This document shows, in pieces, positions 26,523 to 45,825 of a stretch of DNA of 64,000 nucleotides. Numbering within the stretch: position 1 is the first letter of the stretch; each line of letters opens with the position of its first letter. This DNA is from a virus. Its lineage: Duplodnaviria > Caudoviricetes. The position numbers and the translations under genes are program-made. A model generated the notes under the pieces. That model was not told the origin of the DNA and made no database searches. It saw nothing but the letters and a program-made list of their open reading frames with translations. Location: the IMG/VR virus record IMGVR_UViG_3300010352_001202; one strand, given 5' to 3'.

Positions 26523-26750
26523 ATGATTAGATATGATATAAAAATCCCCCGTGATCCGCACTGGGACGGTTTGTGGGAAGAAATTGAAAAGAATGAAAAA
26601 GTAACATTCCCGTATGATATAGATGCCTACCTAAAGAAATATAAAGGTAAGGTATATATGGATCCGGGGTTCAAAGAACTCACTGTTATAAAAGGCATAG
26701 AGTTCAGAACCGAAGAAGATTTAACATATTTCAAATTAAAATTTAACTAA
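26523..26750 (+). CDS. Small protein of the FxxExDxxxFxL family
   Basis: C-terminal IEFRTEEDLTYFKLKF. Confidence 0.65.
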   Translation: MIRYDIKIPRDPHWDGLWEEIEKNEKVTFPYDIDAYLKKYKGKVYMDPGFKELTVIKGIEFRTEEDLTYFKLKFN

Positions 26751-26759
26751 GGAAAGCAA

Positions 26760-27356
26760 ATGAGAAACGCACTGATTCCGATCGTAGTAGAACAAACCGC
26801 ACGCGGAGAACGCTCGTACGATCTATATTCACGCATGATGAAAGAACGAGTTGTGTTCTTCACCGGCGAAGTTGAAACCAATATGTGTAATGTGATGATT
26901 GCACAATTACTGTTCCTGGAAGCAGAAAATCCGGAACAACCCATCAACATGTACATAAATAGTCCGGGAGGCAGTGTTTATGATGGTTTAGGCGTGTATG
27001 ATGTCATGCAGTATATCAAGTGCCCTGTGGCAACTTATGTTACTGGAATGGCAGCTAGCATGGGTAGCTTTATTGCTCAAGCAGGTGCGCCGGGTATGCG
27101 TTATCTTCTACCTCGCGCCATTACAATGATTCACCAGCCTTCATCGGGAACACGCGGTAAGGTTTCGGACATGGAAATTGACTTGATCGAAAGTTTGCGT
27201 ATCAAGAAGGAAATGACCGAACTCTATGTGAAACATAATTCGAAGGGAGTTCAGTACGAGAGATTTGTTGAGTTGATGGATAGAGATAAGTGGCTCACCG
27301 CCCCTCAAGCTCTTGAACTTGGCCTTGCAGATCATATCGTCGAAAAGAGAGCATGA
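26760..27356 (+). CDS. clpP: Clp protease proteolytic subunit
   Basis: [35 protein letters not shown] (Ser), MIHQP (His), DRDKWL (Asp). Confidence 0.97.
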
Positions 27357-27673
27357 TAACAGTAACAGATAAAGCAAAAGAAAAGATTGTCGATGTACTA
27401 ATCGGGGAAAAAATGCCTTATCTCCGATTTGGCCTCCAAGGCGGCGGATGTAACGGATTTCAGTATTACTTTGCCCCATCAGATGAAAAAGATGAGGATG
27501 ATACTGAATTACCGTTGTCTGACGGATATACACTTATTGTGGATGCAATGAGTATGATGTATCTGGAAGAAGCTGAGATCGATTATAAGAAAGATATCAT
27601 GGGCGAGACTTTTGTTTTCAATAATCCAAACACAAAAACAAGTTGCGGTTGTGGTAGCAGCGTAGGCTTCTAA
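27353..27673 (+). CDS. A-type Fe-S carrier (IscA/ErpA, HesB family)
   Basis: [31 protein letters not shown]. Confidence 0.95.
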
Positions 27674-28407
27674 TGGAAGACCTCGAGCAGCCATCTAAAA
27701 CATTACTCAGTCTCGAAGGGGTTCGTGGAATTTACGAATACTTGCTGGGCTGGGCCTTAAATGTTCCGTTGCAGTTTATATGTTCCAAAGGCGATAATCA
27801 TCCTGTTATGATTATTCCGGGCCTCGGTGGCGCAGACGGCTCAACCCATTACATTCGTAATTTCTTAACAAACATTAATTACGAAACACATCCTTGGGGA
27901 TTGGGAAGAAACTTTGGGCCTCGTGACGGTTTAGATACATTACTAAACAAACTTGCCGATCGTGTACGCGATATCTCAGAACAATCGGGCGGTAAAGAAG
28001 TTAGCCTAATAGGCTGGAGTTTAGGCGGTATCTATGCACGGGAAATTGCCAAGATTGCCCCAGAATCTGTAAGGCAGGTAATTACACTGGGTACACCCTT
28101 CAAGGGAGATGCCGCAGGTACCAACGCTACATTTTTATACGAAATGTTAAGTAAGGATAAGAGCCACCGTAATCCACAAATTTTGAAAAGAGTAGGTGAA
28201 GTTCCGCCGGTTCCGTTTACTTCCTTATACAGCAAATCCGATGGTGTAGTCCATTGGCAATGCTCGCTTGAGGAAGAAGGGCAATTTTCTGAAAATATCG
28301 AAGTTCCCGGTGCAAGTCATTTAGGATTAGGGCACAATCCAATATCCATGTATGTAATAGCTGATAGGCTAACGCAAACAAAAGATACCTGGAAACCGTA
28401 CAAATAA
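27673..28407 (+). CDS. Alpha/beta hydrolase (esterase/lipase)
   Basis: IIPGLGG, GWSLGG nucleophile elbow, TLGTP, SDGVV, SHLGL. Confidence 0.9.
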   Translation: MEDLEQPSKTLLSLEGVRGIYEYLLGWALNVPLQFICSKGDNHPVMIIPGLGGADGSTHYIRNFLTNINYETHPWGLGRNFGPRDGLDTLLNKLADRVRDISEQSGGKEVSLIGWSLGGIYAREIAKIAPESVRQVITLGTPFKGDAAGTNATFLYEMLSKDKSHRNPQILKRVGEVPPVPFTSLYSKSDGVVHWQCSLEEEGQFSENIEVPGASHLGLGHNPISMYVIADRLTQTKDTWKPYK

Positions 28408-28430
28408 GAAACCGCCGCAAGGCGGTTTTC
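28408..28430 (+). terminator. Intrinsic terminator
   Basis: AAACCGCC-GCAA-GGCGGTTTT. Confidence 0.85.
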
Positions 28431-28431
28431 G

Positions 28432-28476
28432 TATTGTGTCAATAAAAATTGACACAATATAAGTTTGTGTTATAAT
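28432..28476 (+). promoter_or_regulatory. sigma70-type promoter with a 12-bp inverted repeat over the -35 box
   Basis: TATTGTGTCAAT-AAAA-ATTGACACAATA; TTGACA(28449)-16-TATAAT(28471). Confidence 0.7.
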
Positions 28477-28503: not shown

Positions 28504-28737
28504 ATGTCTGATAATAATACATATGTACCTATGAACGAGCTTATTCGTGAAAAGGAAAAATCCTGGACATTTACGCATATAAACTTGCCATATGCTGAAA
28601 TTGCTAAGAAGGGAATTGTAATTTGGTGCGTAGAAAATCTAGAAGGTAGATGGACTATGCTAGGTGGTAATAAATTCGGATTTGAAGACGGTACTGACGC
28701 AACTATGTTCAGAATGCAATTTGGACTGGGAATTTAG
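28504..28737 (+). CDS. Small protein of the FxxExDxxxFxL family
   Basis: WCVENLEGRW...FGFEDGTDATMFRMQF. Confidence 0.7.
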   Translation: MSDNNTYVPMNELIREKEKSWTFTHINLPYAEIAKKGIVIWCVENLEGRWTMLGGNKFGFEDGTDATMFRMQFGLGI

Positions 28738-28776
28738 CGTGGTATAAATAGTTTATCACACAAACGGGAGAATACC

Positions 28777-28974: not shown

Positions 28975-30109
28975 TATTGCAAGAAATATCTATTTAGCCT
29001 GGAACACAACAAACCAAAAATTTGAATTACCTGAGGTAGAAGTAATACCAATCGGAGACTCGGCAAACGAGAAGCGGAAAGGTGCCTCTGCGACAAAGAA
29101 GTATGTAAATCTGCGTGAATTTGAAAATCGACCATTGCCCGGATTCGCACTACATAAGACCGATCGTAAAAATTGGGGATCAATCGATCAAACTTGGCTG
29201 GTCATTGATCCCCGCGGATTCCTAGTTAGAATCACAAACGATAATCTAGAACAGATCTTACATGTAACAGGAATTACAGAAGGGCTGATTCAAGAAAAGT
29301 GTATCTGGGCACGCAAAGATACACAGACAAAGACGATGTTGATTCCCGTAAGTTCTGCAAAATATGCAGAAGCAGTTTCGAATACAGAATTACTCGAAGG
29401 CAAGGTAAACATCAAGGATGTGCAAATCGGCGATGAAGTATTATTACAGAATCAGCTAAAAGGCACATACATGGGTGTTGTATCTCTATATGGCCCAATG
29501 AATGATTATTCTACAACATGCGTATATAAGCCGCAGGTCTATCTAAGGCGCCAGGTTGTTAAGATTTCCCCGGGAAAATATCACTATCAAACCGATGTGA
29601 AAATCCTAAAGGTTCTTAAGAAGGCAGCAACACCGCTAACACGGGAAGACTCAGTTGAAGAAATGAGTAAAGATATTGCCGGCGGCGCCGCGTACTTTAC
29701 CAGCAGTTCAAATATGAACGGTCGATATTATTCTATTCGCGGAGTTATATCTGCTGTATCGACCAACGCTGTTCCTAAGGTGTCAATGACATTTGAAGAA
29801 GTAGATAAAGTTGAAGCAGAAGCATTGTTTAATCTAGGAACGGTAAATAGCGACATTGGAAGACTATTATTAGTTGACAAGAGTGATAATAAATTCTTAG
29901 TTGATTATCCGTATTCGTTTAACAGCACGAAGACAACTTCAATACATGGCTTTGATGTATCGAGACTAACTCCGTGTACATTAGACAAGACTGAAATGAT
30001 TAAGCTAGATTATAAGCGACAAGCTTATTTTCCAGGTGTTCAGACACTTGACAATTTTGCGAAATTCTATAAAATAGTCAAACATGTAAAGGACAAGTCC
30101 TACATTTGA
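28967..30109 (+). CDS. Hypothetical phage protein
   Basis: 380-aa ORF; FENRPLPGF, WLVIDPRGF, GLIQEKCIWAR. Confidence 0.7.
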   Translation: MLNIARNIYLAWNTTNQKFELPEVEVIPIGDSANEKRKGASATKKYVNLREFENRPLPGFALHKTDRKNWGSIDQTWLVIDPRGFLVRITNDNLEQILHVTGITEGLIQEKCIWARKDTQTKTMLIPVSSAKYAEAVSNTELLEGKVNIKDVQIGDEVLLQNQLKGTYMGVVSLYGPMNDYSTTCVYKPQVYLRRQVVKISPGKYHYQTDVKILKVLKKAATPLTREDSVEEMSKDIAGGAAYFTSSSNMNGRYYSIRGVISAVSTNAVPKVSMTFEEVDKVEAEALFNLGTVNSDIGRLLLVDKSDNKFLVDYPYSFNSTKTTSIHGFDVSRLTPCTLDKTEMIKLDYKRQAYFPGVQTLDNFAKFYKIVKHVKDKSYI

Positions 30110-30121
30110 CTAAGGATAGAA

Positions 30122-30532
30122 ATGACAAAAAATATCGATCTAAAAAAGTATGCACAATTTGTTGATGGCGTAACAGCCCAGCCAAGCAAGGAACTTCAGG
30201 CTCTTATTAGCCGAATGCAAGAGCTAGAAGCACAGGGCGCTAATGTTCCCCGCTTGCTTACAGCAGGCATTGGAATGCCTGGCGAATCTGGAGAGTTCAG
30301 CGAATTGGTAAAGAAGATTGTATTCCATGGTAAGGCATACGACGAAGAAAATATTACCAAACTGAAGAAGGAATTAGGCGATGTCGCTTGGTATTGGACT
30401 CAAGCTTGTCTTGCTCTTGATATCGACCCTAACAGTATTATTGCTGAAAATGTGGCTAAGTTAGAGGCACGCTACCCGGGTGGTAAGTTTTCTGTGTGGC
30501 ATGCAGAAAACAGGCAAGAGGGTGATGTCTGA
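30122..30532 (+). CDS. MazG-like nucleotide pyrophosphohydrolase
   Basis: GESGEFSELVKK, KKELGDVAWY, NVAKLEARYP. Confidence 0.9.
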   Translation: MTKNIDLKKYAQFVDGVTAQPSKELQALISRMQELEAQGANVPRLLTAGIGMPGESGEFSELVKKIVFHGKAYDEENITKLKKELGDVAWYWTQACLALDIDPNSIIAENVAKLEARYPGGKFSVWHAENRQEGDV

Positions 30533-31052
30533 TTTTAGAAAAATAATGTTGCCCATGATTCGGAGAATACTTCCGAGTCTTGTGGCACAGGAAATTATGA
30601 GCGTTCAGCCCATGACCGCATCAACAGGGAAACTATTTAAAATGGGATTAGGGCCGCCAGTTTGTACCTTATGCATGATTATAGGTACTCTTAACAATGA
30701 AGATAAGGGGCACCCCTGGCGTTGCCACAACTGTGGTGATTTTAAATTACCGGGGCACTTGTGGTCGTATACTGAAGATTTGCAACAATATATCCAGAAT
30801 AGAACTACATTGTATAAGGGTAGAAAAATTATGGAATCTAAAAAACTTCTACCTCATTCAGTAATAAAATCCTTCATGTTTGTTGGCAGCAATTTAGAGC
30901 CTAACGAACGGTATAGAGCATGGCTAGAAGAACATATTGGAAAACAAGGCGAAGCGTGGAACTGGGACATAAAATCAGTAACTGCTAACTTACTTGAAGT
31001 TTCTTTTGAACAGGAAGAGGATGCAGTCCTCTTCAGATTATCATGTCAGTAA
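30525..31052 (+). CDS. Fusion protein: Gol/gp23-like peptide + Zn ribbon + FxxExDAxxFxL domain
   Basis: IMLPMIRRILPSLVAQEIMSVQPMTASTG; CTLC...CHNC; WLEEHIGKQG..W.W...FEQEEDAVLFRL. Confidence 0.7.
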   Translation: MSDFRKIMLPMIRRILPSLVAQEIMSVQPMTASTGKLFKMGLGPPVCTLCMIIGTLNNEDKGHPWRCHNCGDFKLPGHLWSYTEDLQQYIQNRTTLYKGRKIMESKKLLPHSVIKSFMFVGSNLEPNERYRAWLEEHIGKQGEAWNWDIKSVTANLLEVSFEQEEDAVLFRLSCQ

Positions 31053-31320: not shown

Positions 31321-31489
31321 TAAATAGGAAAAAGTCGAAGGCTGGTTTCTAATACCTTCGAAGGAAGAACAAACACTCTTGATTCTGCAAGGTAAATGCC
31401 CGCATAATAAAGCATGGTACGAGGACGGGCATTCGCATAACTCCACTGCCTATAAATGTAGTATGTGTCGTGAGATTAAATTCTGGTAA
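31310..31489 (+). pseudogene. Small Zn-finger ORF with in-frame TAG near its 5' end (or a shorter gene starting at TTG 31379)
   Basis: GTG-ENNK-TAG-EKVEGWFLIPSKEEQTLLILQGKCPHNKAWYEDGHSHNSTAYKCSMCREIKFW-TAA; TAATG-coupled to the next gene. Confidence 0.5.
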
Positions 31490-31779
31490 TGGAATTCAAA
31501 ACAATAGTTCAGCATTGGAGATATGAAGACGGTTGGAGGGAAATTCCAACCATTCTTCGCGACAAATACGACGGGCGGGAAAAAGAATTTGATGAAGCTT
31601 TAGTAGGATGGCATTGCTGGGTCTATCCAGCAAATGATAAAGATTTTGCTCGCTGGATGAAAAAGAATATGAAAGGGAAGTACGAATGTGACTTCCGATT
31701 TAACTCGGGAGACCCAATGTTCACCGTCCTAATAAAAGATGATCAAGACGCTACCTTATTTAAATTAACCTGGATGTAA
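31489..31779 (+). CDS. Small protein of the FxxExDxxxFxL family
   Basis: C-terminal LIKDDQDATLFKLTW. Confidence 0.7.
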   Translation: MEFKTIVQHWRYEDGWREIPTILRDKYDGREKEFDEALVGWHCWVYPANDKDFARWMKKNMKGKYECDFRFNSGDPMFTVLIKDDQDATLFKLTWM

Positions 31780-32095: not shown

Positions 32096-32124
32096 TTGAC
32101 ACACCTGCTGTGTCATAGTAAAAT
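32096..32124 (+). promoter_or_regulatory. sigma70-type promoter with TGACACA/TGTGTCA inverted repeat
   Basis: TTGACA(32096)-17-TAAAAT(32119). Confidence 0.75.
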
Positions 32125-32154: not shown

Positions 32155-32415
32155 ATGAACAAGGCAACTACTCCTCCGGTCAACCTGAAGGAACAGAACG
32201 CGGCTCATACCTTCCGTGTTACGATTCGTGATCGTGACCATTTCTACAAGCTGGTCAACTGGCTCAATACCAATGTTGGTAAGGGCGAAGACAAGTGGAC
32301 GATGGAAGGCCGTGTGCTGAAGACGCTGAAGCAAGGCAAGACTGTCGCTCCGAAGATCTACATCTTCAAGGAAGACTTCGATCCGTCGTCGTCTCTGTAC
32401 CTGAGCCTCCTGTAA
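32155..32415 (+). CDS. Hypothetical early protein
   Basis: 86 aa, host-like codon usage; WLNTNVGKG..KW similar to the small-protein family. Confidence 0.7.
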   Translation: MNKATTPPVNLKEQNAAHTFRVTIRDRDHFYKLVNWLNTNVGKGEDKWTMEGRVLKTLKQGKTVAPKIYIFKEDFDPSSSLYLSLL

Positions 32416-34265: not shown

Positions 34266-34979
34266 ATGATGAAAAGGGGAAGACATTTAATCAAAAGCCA
34301 TATGACAATGGAGTATGCGTTTACCGGGATCAGAATTCAATCAGCATGCTTAACTCCGGTTGAATGGCATCTAACAGTAGACCTTGTAGCCACTGAGAAG
34401 AAAGGTAAAACAAAGACAGAAATCGAATACAATGCAGGTGTCACATATCAGAAGCTTTATTTTTGGTTAGACACAAATTTACCTAACATTGTGCTAGTTG
34501 ATGTCACTAATGAAGACGACTTGTATATTGCAAATTTATCAGCTAATATAGCACTGTATTGCCCGGCAAATCCCGGAGATGATTTGTTTGCACAGTTACT
34601 GCACTCTAAATTAACAGCATTGGCTGGTGAAGATTTACTCATAGGCGAAATACACCTAAAGGGTAGTGATATGTCACTTCAGTACACATTTGATTGTGTC
34701 GATGGTGCATATGACTTACCGATTGCAACAGCAGATTATTACACCGAAGGTACCACAAGAGATGAAATACCTTGGTGGACCAGAGATGATGGATTCTGCT
34801 TTGAATTTGTAAAGCCTGCAGATTCCGAAGTTAGCGATGAAGAATTGTTTAAAGACATTTTTGATCCTATGGATGAATTTGAAAGAATAATGAAAGAGGC
34901 TTCTGAGACACATATTGGTGTTGTTCGGGAACCAGCAAGGATAGTTCAGGTTGAAAAATGGAAACCAAAAACTGTATGA
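34266..34979 (+). CDS. Hypothetical protein
   Basis: 237 aa; PGDDLF, PWWTRDD. Confidence 0.7.
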   Translation: MMKRGRHLIKSHMTMEYAFTGIRIQSACLTPVEWHLTVDLVATEKKGKTKTEIEYNAGVTYQKLYFWLDTNLPNIVLVDVTNEDDLYIANLSANIALYCPANPGDDLFAQLLHSKLTALAGEDLLIGEIHLKGSDMSLQYTFDCVDGAYDLPIATADYYTEGTTRDEIPWWTRDDGFCFEFVKPADSEVSDEELFKDIFDPMDEFERIMKEASETHIGVVREPARIVQVEKWKPKTV

Positions 34980-35593
34980 CAGTCCCGTTTACCTATAGAA
35001 TTATATGCCCCAACGGCACTAAATATTACGGTGTAAGATATGCTATAGGGTGTAAACCCGATGATCTATGGAATACATATTTTACATCATCCAAAGAAGT
35101 TAAGGCTTTATTAACAATATTTGATAAAGAATTATTCATCTGCGATATAAGAAAAGTATTTAATAATAAGATAGATGCACTTAGTCATGAAGGTAGGGTA
35201 TTAAAAAGAATTGTAGATAAGCCGGGATGGTTAAATAAGCATAAGGGCGATTTAAAATTTCATAACTCGTCCCCGCATTCAGAAGAGACAAAAAGAAAGA
35301 TTAGTATTGCTATTACCGGAAAGAAACAATCATCCGAGACTATAGAAAAGCGAGTTAAAAAGAATACAGGTAAGAAAAGAATTAATCCACAAGGTCATGC
35401 TCAAACAGAGGAAACAAAGAAAAAAATTTCCAAATCTCGTAAGGGTTTACCGGGGCCTATGTTGGGAAAAATTCATTCAGAAGAAACAAGGAAAAAGATA
35501 TCTATAGCTAATTCTGGAAAAATTCATAAGCCACATTCAGAAGAGACAAAAGCAAAGATGAGAGAAGCATGGATTCGTCGAAAAACGGTGTAA
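34976..35593 (+). CDS. GIY-YIG-like homing endonuclease with NUMOD3 repeats
   Basis: PFTYRI...YYGVR, YFTSS, repeated HSEETKxKIS. Confidence 0.85.
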   Translation: MTVPFTYRIICPNGTKYYGVRYAIGCKPDDLWNTYFTSSKEVKALLTIFDKELFICDIRKVFNNKIDALSHEGRVLKRIVDKPGWLNKHKGDLKFHNSSPHSEETKRKISIAITGKKQSSETIEKRVKKNTGKKRINPQGHAQTEETKKKISKSRKGLPGPMLGKIHSEETRKKISIANSGKIHKPHSEETKAKMREAWIRRKTV

Positions 35594-36105
35594 AAGTTAA
35601 CATGTATGGTCAAGCCATACTATCTAGTGAAAATTTAAGGGATCTGCTGCTACAAGGAAAAAATATAAGTCACTTGAATGTTGTGTTTGATGATGAGATT
35701 GAGTTATTCCAGAAATATCAATCGGAACTATTACACGACACAATTACATTCCTTGATGCACCAGAGGAGAAGTTATCCTTTGATGAGTTTCATCAACAAT
35801 GTGCCGAAGAATGGATTTTTCCCGAAATTTACCAGCAAATCGATGTTTTAAAATGGTTACTTGATAAATGTAAGACGCAGCAGGAAAGAGATCGTGTAAA
35901 CGAAGAATATAAACTGTATGAAGAGCGTGATTTAATTATGCTTCTAAGATTGTTTATATTTCTTGTAGATTACATGAGAAAGAATAAGTTTTTATGGGGT
36001 GTAGGAAGAGGCTCAAGTGTAGCATCCTATGTCTTATATTTAATTGGTGTACACAGAGTAGATTCGTTAAAATACGGTCTCGAAATTAAAGATTATCTAA
36101 AATAG
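35569..36105 (+). CDS. DNA polymerase III alpha (DnaE)-like fragment
   Basis: RVNEEY..LVDYMRKN...WGVGRGSSVASYVLYLIGVHRVDSLKYGL; ends before the catalytic PDxDxD motif. Confidence 0.8.
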   Translation: MDSSKNGVKVNMYGQAILSSENLRDLLLQGKNISHLNVVFDDEIELFQKYQSELLHDTITFLDAPEEKLSFDEFHQQCAEEWIFPEIYQQIDVLKWLLDKCKTQQERDRVNEEYKLYEERDLIMLLRLFIFLVDYMRKNKFLWGVGRGSSVASYVLYLIGVHRVDSLKYGLEIKDYLK

Positions 36106-42769: not shown

Positions 42770-43594
42770 ATGAGCGAACGAAATTTCTACGAGATTCTCG
42801 GTGTCCCAAAGTCTGCATCGGAAGATGACATCAAGAAAGCTTATCGCAAGCTAGCAAGTAAATACCATCCCGATAAACTCAGCGATGCCGAGAAGGTATC
42901 AGGTGAGGCAAAGTTCAAAGAGGCTAAAGAAGCCTACGAGACTTTATCCGACGAACAGAAGCGTGCCGCATACGATCAGCACGGGCACGCATCTACAGAT
43001 CCCAATTTTGGTAGATCTCACTTCCACGATTTCGAACAAGGTTTAAATCCAAACGATATTAACGAAATCTTCAGCACTATCTTTGGCGGTAGGAGCTTTA
43101 ATTTTGGTACAGGCGCACAAACACAACAGCGCCAACCTATGTACCAATTAAACATTTCGTTAATGGACGCATACATTGGCAGAACTGTAACACTAGAGGG
43201 CAACCTGACGGTAAATATCCCGAAGGGCGTTCGCTCTGGTACTAAGTTCTATGCCGGTGGCAAGCTGATCAGGATTGAAGTTGCACCGGATTCTAAATTC
43301 AAGCGTGCTAACGACGATTTGCTGGTTGATGTTGAGATCAGCGCAATCGAAGCCATACTAGGTGCCGAAGCAGTTCTTGAACATTTAGACGGCTCTAAAT
43401 TACAGTTTGCTATCCCCGGTGGTATTCAGCCCGGGCAGATAATCAAGTTGGGTGGCAAGGGGATGAGAAACCCCGAGAATGATAGATATGGCGATTTGTT
43501 AGTGCGCATCGCAATTACCATACCAAGGACACCAACACAGGAAGAAAGAGTTGCACTTAAATCTCTGAACCACAGAGCATCAATTACAATCTAA
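42770..43594 (+). CDS. dnaJ: DnaJ-family co-chaperone without Zn finger (CbpA-like)
   Basis: J domain with HPD, G/F region, DnaJ_C (LGGKGM, GDLLV). Confidence 0.92.
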
Positions 43595-43602
43595 GGAAAA
43601 CA

Positions 43603-45825
43603 ATGAGTACAAAAAAAGTTGAGAAGATGGTTGAGCGGGCAGTTGCCATTGCAAATGATAACAATCATGAGTATGTAACACTCGAGCACATTCTTCTGTC
43701 ACTACTGCACGAGAAAGAGATCGATGCCCTGGTTCAGGCAATTGGCGGACAACCTGCAAAGATCAAAACAGATACAATTCAGTTCTTAGGTGATCCTGCG
43801 CTGAAGAAGCCAGATGCACTGAAAGAAGTTCCTGCCAAGCGCACCGCAGTACTGAATAGAACATTCCAGCGTGCCCTTACACAACTTGTGTTTAGCGGCA
43901 GGAATGAACTCAACAACGAGTCGGTGTTGCTCAGTATTTTGAGCGAAGAAACCAGCCACGCATATTACTTCCTTGGTAAGAACGGTGTTACCAGAGAAAA
44001 GATTATTGCCTATATGCGTAAGGCAGAAGAGAAGGCAGGCGATGCAGAGGAAACTCCGCTTGATTTGTTTGCACGCAACCTGAATAAGGAAGCATCAGAC
44101 GGTTCCATCGACCCTGTTATTGCACGCGAACGCGAAGTTATCGATACCATTGAAATCTTGGCTCGTCGCAAGAAGAACAATGTCATTTATGTGGGCGAAC
44201 CTGGTGTTGGTAAGACCGCACTTGCAGAAGGCCTTGCATTGAAGATTGTCAACAAGGATGTTCCTAAGGCGCTGCAAGACAAGGTTGTTTACAGCCTGGA
44301 TTTGGGTGCATTGCTTGCCGGAACTAAGTTCCGCGGTGACTTTGAAGAGCGTTTGAAGGGCGTACTTGATCAAGTCAAGAAGCTTGGTAACTGCATTATG
44401 TTCATCGACGAAATCCACATGATCCTTGGTGCAGGTTCTACAACCGGTAGCCAAATGGATGCTGGTAACTTGCTGAAGCCTATGCTTGCCAAGGGGCAAC
44501 TCATGTGCGTTGGTGCAACGACATACGACGAGTTCCACGAACACTTTGAGAAGGATAAGGCACTGTTGCGTCGTTTCCAGAAGTACGACATTCTGCAACC
44601 CAGCGCAGCTGATACCAAGCTTATCCTTAAGGGCATTGCGTATCAATACGAGAAGTTCCACGGCGTTACATTTGCCGAAGGTGCTACCGACATGTGCGTA
44701 GATTTGGCAGATCGTTACTTGAAGTCTAAGTTCTTCCCTGACAAGGCTATTGACATCATGGACTCGGCCGGTGCAATTGCCAAGCTTCGTGAAATCAAGG
44801 AAGTTAGTTGCGATATCGTTGTTGAACAGGCAGCTAAGATTGCACGCATTCCTGCAGCAATGATTGACATGAAGGAAAACGACCAACTGGAAAATCTTGC
44901 ACCGCGTGTGAAGAACAAGGTTTACGGTCAGGATGTTGCAATCGACAAGCTTGTGGAATCTATCTACATGTCTAAGGCAGGATTGCGTAACCCAGCCAAG
45001 CCCATCGGCAGCTTCTTGTTTACTGGTCCGACTGGTACTGGTAAGACATACACTGCAAAGAAGCTTGCAGAAGCACTCGGCGTACATTTCCAGCGTTTTG
45101 ACATGTCGGAATACATGGAAAAGCACACTGTATCCAAGTTCATTGGTGCTCCTCCGGGATATGTCGGACACGGCGAAGGCAAGATGGGCGAAGGTCAGCT
45201 TATTCAAGCAATCGATACCAACCCGAACTGCGTATTGCTGCTCGACGAAATCGAAAAAGCCAATCCAGATGTTATTACTGTGCTATTGCAGGTAATGGAT
45301 GACGGACGACTCACTTCTGCTAAGGGCAAGACTGTTGACTTCAGCAATGTGATTATCATCATGTCTGCCAACCTTGGCGCTGCTGATGCCGAAAAGCTGA
45401 AGATTGGCTTCGGGGATCAAGACAACGGTGGTGCAGTGGATGCAGAAATCAAGAAGTTCTTCAGCCCTGAGTTTAGAAACCGCCTTGATGCAGTCGTTAA
45501 GTTCAACAAGTTGACAATGGTCGAAATGAACCTTATTGTCAACGCTGAAGTTGAGAAGACTGAAGCAATGCTTGCTCCTAAGAACATTACACTGAATGTT
45601 ACTCAACAAGCACGCGACTGGTTGGCTAAGAGCGGCTACGATCCCAAGATGGGTGCAAGACCGTTCGAACGCTTGTTTGAAGCAAGAGTCAAGAAGCCGT
45701 TGTCAACAGAAATCTTGTTCGGCAAGCTGAAGAATGGTGGCCGTGCAAATGTCGACTACGATGTGGTTTGCGATACGATTACTGTTAATGTGTTGGATCC
45801 GATTCCTGTACAGACACTGATCTAA
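43603..45825 (+). CDS. clpA: ATP-dependent Clp protease ATPase subunit ClpA
   Basis: HEYVTLEHILL, GEPGVGKT, GTKFRGDFEER, GPTGTGKT, GAPPGYVG, KIGFG; no ClpB middle domain. Confidence 0.96.
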   Translation: MSTKKVEKMVERAVAIANDNNHEYVTLEHILLSLLHEKEIDALVQAIGGQPAKIKTDTIQFLGDPALKKPDALKEVPAKRTAVLNRTFQRALTQLVFSGRNELNNESVLLSILSEETSHAYYFLGKNGVTREKIIAYMRKAEEKAGDAEETPLDLFARNLNKEASDGSIDPVIAREREVIDTIEILARRKKNNVIYVGEPGVGKTALAEGLALKIVNKDVPKALQDKVVYSLDLGALLAGTKFRGDFEERLKGVLDQVKKLGNCIMFIDEIHMILGAGSTTGSQMDAGNLLKPMLAKGQLMCVGATTYDEFHEHFEKDKALLRRFQKYDILQPSAADTKLILKGIAYQYEKFHGVTFAEGATDMCVDLADRYLKSKFFPDKAIDIMDSAGAIAKLREIKEVSCDIVVEQAAKIARIPAAMIDMKENDQLENLAPRVKNKVYGQDVAIDKLVESIYMSKAGLRNPAKPIGSFLFTGPTGTGKTYTAKKLAEALGVHFQRFDMSEYMEKHTVSKFIGAPPGYVGHGEGKMGEGQLIQAIDTNPNCVLLLDEIEKANPDVITVLLQVMDDGRLTSAKGKTVDFSNVIIIMSANLGAADAEKLKIGFGDQDNGGAVDAEIKKFFSPEFRNRLDAVVKFNKLTMVEMNLIVNAEVEKTEAMLAPKNITLNVTQQARDWLAKSGYDPKMGARPFERLFEARVKKPLSTEILFGKLKNGGRANVDYDVVCDTITVNVLDPIPVQTLI

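Follow-up and report, generated by a model that had tools for sequence, protein, structure and literature searches.

A homologue of the capsid N-arm at the front of a small non-capsid protein in an uncultured giant phage

Why would a phage carry the most conserved strip of a T4-type capsid protein on a protein that is not a capsid protein? The question is raised by the gene at 30525-31052 (+) of a 64,000-nucleotide stretch of viral DNA, hereafter the window, which encodes a protein of 175 aa (P0001). A first-pass annotation of the sequence had described this gene as a stand-alone homologue of the T4 Gol peptide, fused to a zinc ribbon and a small paralogous domain, in a non-structural cluster coupled to MazG. 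It had inferred an EF-Tu-binding module, a decoy for capsid-sensing defence systems or a poison of competing capsid assembly. We first checked whether or not the capsid similarity is real, and then examined what the gene, its family and its surroundings could tell about its role.

A capsid-like block in a non-capsid protein

The segment 30543-30629 reads exactly as annotated, and its similarity to capsid proteins holds in four independent tests. The Pfam Gp23 profile (PF07068) matches residues 2-40 to model positions 2-40 of 376, with an E-value of 4e-10 and 40.1 bits, above the curated cut-off of 24.4. PHROG 138, 'major head protein', matches at E 3.6e-8. A phmmer search against PDB aligns residues 8-40 without gaps to residues 95-127 of T4 gp23, with 14 of 33 positions identical, and a profile of 13 orthologues extends this alignment to T4 87-127 at E 3e-4; the T4 sequence used by the first-pass annotation agrees with the PDB chain. 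Finally, a major capsid protein profile that we built from seven capsid proteins scores the piece at E 2e-13 among 5277 six-frame pieces of the genome. The observation is thus confirmed and lies far beyond chance. The protein does not, on the other hand, possess the complete HK97-type body (P and A domains, spine helix; roughly 390-520 aa) of gp23/gp24-type major capsid and vertex proteins: there is no match beyond model position 40, and propeptide, P domain, A domain and insertion domain are all missing. It is therefore not a capsid protein.

The capsid-like tail comprises residues 1-40 (30525-30644, +), with a 27-aa core, F4-M30, at 30534-30614. The first-pass annotation would have been undermined by the absence of a significant gp23 profile match, which is excluded above, or by translation starting downstream of the motif, and we found no support for the latter. 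The ATG at 30525 overlaps the MazG stop (ATGTCTGA) and is preceded by AAGAGGG, whereas no Shine-Dalgarno sequence is conserved before the internal Met40, which we thus reject as the main start. We then analyzed the 27 codons of the core, which lie outside the MazG overlap, across seven loci. Synonymous sites are saturated (pS 0.33-0.96), non-synonymous differences are low (pN 0.06-0.36), and dN/dS is 0.08-0.5 in the pairs where dS could be estimated. Compared with distant orthologues, the tail is about 70% identical (19 of 27) while the whole protein is about 34% identical. Moreover, the conserved positions (P7, I9, R10, P14, A18, E20 and VQPM) are the same as in real capsid N-arms (Spearman 0.64, p 3e-4). 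One difference is that the invariant second Arg of the capsid 'RR' pair (core position 11) is variable in the small proteins, so that the interface need not be identical. A further stretch of conservation upstream, 'GTPKID', first looked like additional capsid homology but proved to be the alternative reading frame of the conserved MazG C-terminus, and was discarded as evidence.

These data bear on the possibility that the capsid-like stretch is only a passenger relic, left for example by a rearrangement driven by a homing-endonuclease cassette, the working protein starting at Met40. Met40 is indeed invariant in the 13 close orthologues, and many relatives start at MGLGPP. Gene pieces linked to homing endonucleases also occur nearby: a NUMOD3-motif homing-endonuclease-like gene (34958-35593, E 1e-20) is directly followed by, and overlaps, a 178-aa stand-alone piece of DnaE (35569-36105; DNA_pol3_alpha model positions 15-94 of 260, E 2.6e-8), which suggests that endonuclease traffic creates or carries gene pieces in this phage. 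However, the purifying selection on the tail, its retention across about 10 clusters at 50% identity with and without the ribbon, and the start signals make this reading very unlikely. It may describe the origin of the tail but not its present state.

The same genome holds two further capsid-like pieces. A 77-aa ORF at 43312-43557 (-) of contig G000:C1, about 6 kb beyond the window end (locus L002, 1525-1758, -), matches only the strand plus spine-helix block of gp23 (Pfam model positions 147-199, E 1.4e-9; our capsid profile, E 3.9e-12) and lies just upstream of a glycosyltransferase-like gene. A syntenic but more divergent 79-aa counterpart exists in a related 52-kb record (G001; locus L092, 1453-1689, -). 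The other piece, KVGYRDKQIFDVSAYYAPYIPY (E 1.4e-3), at 144934-145077 (-) of G000:C1 (locus L003, 1480-1623, -), is a C-terminal 'VGY...YYAPYIP' stretch without ATG, GTG or TTG start. It lies in the -1 frame behind a paralogue of the small C-terminal domain that ends FKLAFQKEKK* in an A-rich run, and may be a relic or a frameshift fusion. Homing-endonuclease traffic is a plausible source of such pieces, but the one studied here has clearly been kept by selection.

Predicted anatomy and family of the protein

AlphaFold2 was run with a 13-sequence and then with a 44-sequence alignment. Both models leave residues 1-40 without secondary structure, with pLDDT below 50 in the first run and 50-57 in the second, whereas residues 41-175 fold confidently (block means of 79-97). 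The folded body begins with a four-cysteine zinc ribbon, residues 44-82 (30654-30770, +; Cys codons at 30663, 30672, 30723 and 30732), whose two CxxC knuckles, C47/C50 and C67/C70, are invariant in the 13 close orthologues and lie on beta-hairpins modelled at pLDDT 86-92, although no Pfam zinc-ribbon family was hit. It is followed by a helix (residues 84-98) and by a beta-alpha-beta-beta-alpha domain, residues 108-175 (30846-31049, +), with the conserved motif EPNxxYRxWLEExxGxQGxxWxW...F...DAxLFxL (D/H at the D position in the family-wide motif). Fold searches of the pdb, viral and pdb_via_wide sets gave only generic ferredoxin, RRM or ACT-like matches, with Z no higher than 5.6.

This C-terminal domain is the constant core of the family. 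It has about 11 paralogues in the genome: at 26523-26750, 28504-28737, 31489-31779 and 32155-32415 of the window and at least 7 more elsewhere (W..xN.G...W...F.xExDAxxFxL), 11-12 small ORFs being collected by iterative HMM searches with loose inclusion thresholds. Besides the 13 orthologue clusters (42-100% identity), it accounts for most of the 395 clusters of wider relatives found among 1.84 billion representatives, nearly all of them unnamed viral proteins of 57-135 aa. Most members are the domain alone; only about 10 clusters at 50% identity carry the capsid-arm tail, and about 11 carry the ribbon without the tail.

No cultured phage among 50,697 records has such a gene: megablast found no match and tblastn hit only capsid genes, the one longer hit being itself a 491-aa capsid protein. 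A word-based search with the tail alone returned one short protein and three capsid proteins, too few to place the tail among capsid arms. Our literature searches found no description of such a gene. The architecture is new and the family is conserved.

Gene neighbourhood and exchange of modules

The window lies in a 184-kb IMG/VR record from an activated-sludge metagenome, rated 48% complete by CheckV, which belongs to a T4-like jumbo myovirus with rIIA, a gp32-like SSB, UvsX, terminase, sheath and tube genes. No full gp23 was found in this record, a result that does not extend to the 388-kb contig that holds the protein. The gene directly follows and overlaps a MazG-like nucleotide pyrophosphohydrolase of 136 aa (30122-30532, +; Pfam MazG, E 5e-7; phrog_229, E 1e-46), and the same arrangement is seen in all 11 related loci examined. 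The whole block is collinear across these phages, so that the adjacency reflects conserved gene order in one clade rather than repeated re-association, and is only weak evidence of a functional link. The other neighbours are non-structural as well: ClpP (26760-27356, E 1e-66), an IscA-like Fe-S assembly protein (27353-27673), an alpha/beta hydrolase (27673-28407) and a DEDDh exonuclease. With a 740-aa AAA+ 'ATP-dependent protease' homologue (43603-45825), the phage encodes a sizeable proteolysis toolkit of its own.

A sigma-70-type promoter, TTGACA-16-TAAAAT (30048-30075, +), precedes MazG and matches 11 of 12 consensus positions. The same motif lies 45-75 nt upstream of the MazG ATG in 10 of the 11 related loci. 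In the window, matches of 11/12 or better number 9 on the + strand and 0 on the - strand; they include one at 32096-32124 and a perfect TTGACA-16-TATAAT with an extended TG (28449-28476), which follows at once a strong hairpin terminator (28408-28429). We thus consider the operon to be of an early type, a status inferred from sequence alone. However, a late-promoter-like motif, [TG]ATAAATA, occurs 15 times on the + strand and 4 times on the - strand of the window, often 20-35 nt before a start codon (for example 12620, 28743, 41182, 47972, 49616 and 58650), and the copy at 28743, with no clear terminator before the gene, could also give late expression.

On this fixed backbone the orthologous gene changes its modules (L designates a locus and P a protein). 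Tail, ribbon and domain occur together in the window, L004, L005 and P0018; tail and domain without the ribbon in L011, L014, L015, L016, P0024, P0028, P0030, P0033, P0035 and P0160; ribbon and domain, starting at the Met equivalent to Met40, in L013 (checked on DNA) and about 10 protein clusters; and the domain only in L006. L018 contains an apparent decayed remnant of the tail. Another metagenome orthologue, L017 (880-1348), has a frameshift inside the tail, between LPMIR and VLPGIIANEFIGVQPM, which is either an assembly error or a recently broken copy. A tree of the domain, based on only 86 alignment columns, is poorly resolved and shows only that tail-bearing and tail-less forms are interleaved.

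What the tail may bind

In T4, the Gol block (gp23 residues ~94-122) binds EF-Tu domains II-III, preferring the GDP form, is the most conserved part of gp23 and enables Lit to cleave EF-Tu at Gly59-Ile60, a property known for T4 only (PMC3014915). Several defence families sense capsid proteins, and Avs7 builds EF-Tu into its complex (PMC13581612). Our analysis establishes that the first ~40 residues of the protein are a translated and selected copy of this block, unstructured in the models, at the free N-terminus of a folded body made of a zinc ribbon, a helix and a ferredoxin-like domain, and that the gene lies behind a conserved sigma-70-type promoter among non-structural genes; any binding to EF-Tu, effect on Lit or other function is inferred only. 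The interpretation of the first-pass annotation is therefore partly supported, its description being upheld while its three functional proposals remain hypotheses.

We propose, tentatively and at less than even confidence, that the tail is a peptide mimic occupying the site on whichever partner normally holds the capsid N-arm, the folded body adding bulk or a second activity. The early-type operon, the conservation of the same positions as in capsid arms, and the arms-race-like gain, loss or decay of the tail among otherwise collinear phages point, though only indirectly, to a host partner. The most likely one would be EF-Tu, the only documented binder of this block in T4, and/or, if the host carries one, an immune protein sensing the capsid protein or the capsid-EF-Tu complex (Lit-like, Avs7-like). 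If made before the capsid protein, the mimic would pre-occupy or block that partner, as a decoy or competitor. As in T4, a short peptide would be the active unit here, but Gol is an internal part of a 521-aa capsid protein made late. Moreover, a free Gol peptide activates Lit in T4 rather than blocking it, so that a plain mimic could harm the phage in a Lit-carrying host. Our evidence cannot separate EF-Tu binding from a sensor decoy, or either from scaffold or capsid docking.

The main rival hypothesis, which we consider less likely, is an assembly-directed role. The tail would dock the protein onto the phage's own scaffolding core or capsid lattice, at the site that normally holds a capsid N-arm, and the protein would then be packaged like a capsid-targeted internal protein, or would tune head size, timing or vertex or portal positions. 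In T4, this part of gp23 is disordered in the unexpanded head and points inward to the scaffold, carries the head-length mutations A94V and G97S, contacts the portal whisker through Met98, and forms inter-capsomer contacts after expansion (PMC9546572). The conservation of capsid-arm positions, the late-type motif at 28743 and the two further capsid-like pieces are also compatible with this view. On the other hand, the gene has its own conserved sigma-70-type promoter and non-structural neighbours, and the absence of the tail in collinear phages (L013, L006) and its apparent decay in L018 would be unusual for an assembly factor. A parallel can be drawn with the internal proteins IPI-III and Alt of T4 (core composition in PMC9546572), since a short N-terminal peptide on an otherwise unrelated protein could address it to the prohead core. 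T4 targeting sequences are, however, ~10 residues long, unrelated to gp23, followed by an L/I-x-E cleavage site and expressed late. None of these features is seen here, no L/I-x-E following the tail, although late read-through is not excluded.

An inter-phage weapon, in which the tail would act as a dominant-negative arm poisoning the capsid assembly of co-infecting gp23-type phages while the phage's own capsid protein tolerates it, appears unlikely. The tail is as similar to capsid arms of unrelated jumbo phages (40-59% identity) as those arms are to each other, expression looks early, and the distribution is patchy and accessory-like. Nevertheless, nothing indicates that the phage's own capsid protein is immune, and no precedent was found in our literature searches.

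A bolder hypothesis, which is not excluded but which we regard as unlikely, is that a clade of giant phages encodes a set of capsid-epitope mini-proteins: the N-arm/Gol mimic, the spine-helix mini-gene and the C-terminal-strand piece. Made ahead of the capsid protein, they would be decoys that blind or jam host immune sensors recognising conserved capsid surfaces or the capsid-EF-Tu complex. This would be a new class of anti-defence by self-epitope mimicry.

The Gol block is the classic example of a phage peptide that a defence system, Lit, reads through EF-Tu, and recent work shows that many immune families sense capsid proteins (PMC13581612). Here the same strip is detached from the capsid, kept under selection and displayed on a small protein in an early-type context. 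This gives a direct handle on what the strip binds in cells, and on whether phages counter capsid sensing with their own capsid peptides. If the strip instead docks to scaffold or capsid, it would be a new way of addressing cargo to, or regulating, giant-phage heads.
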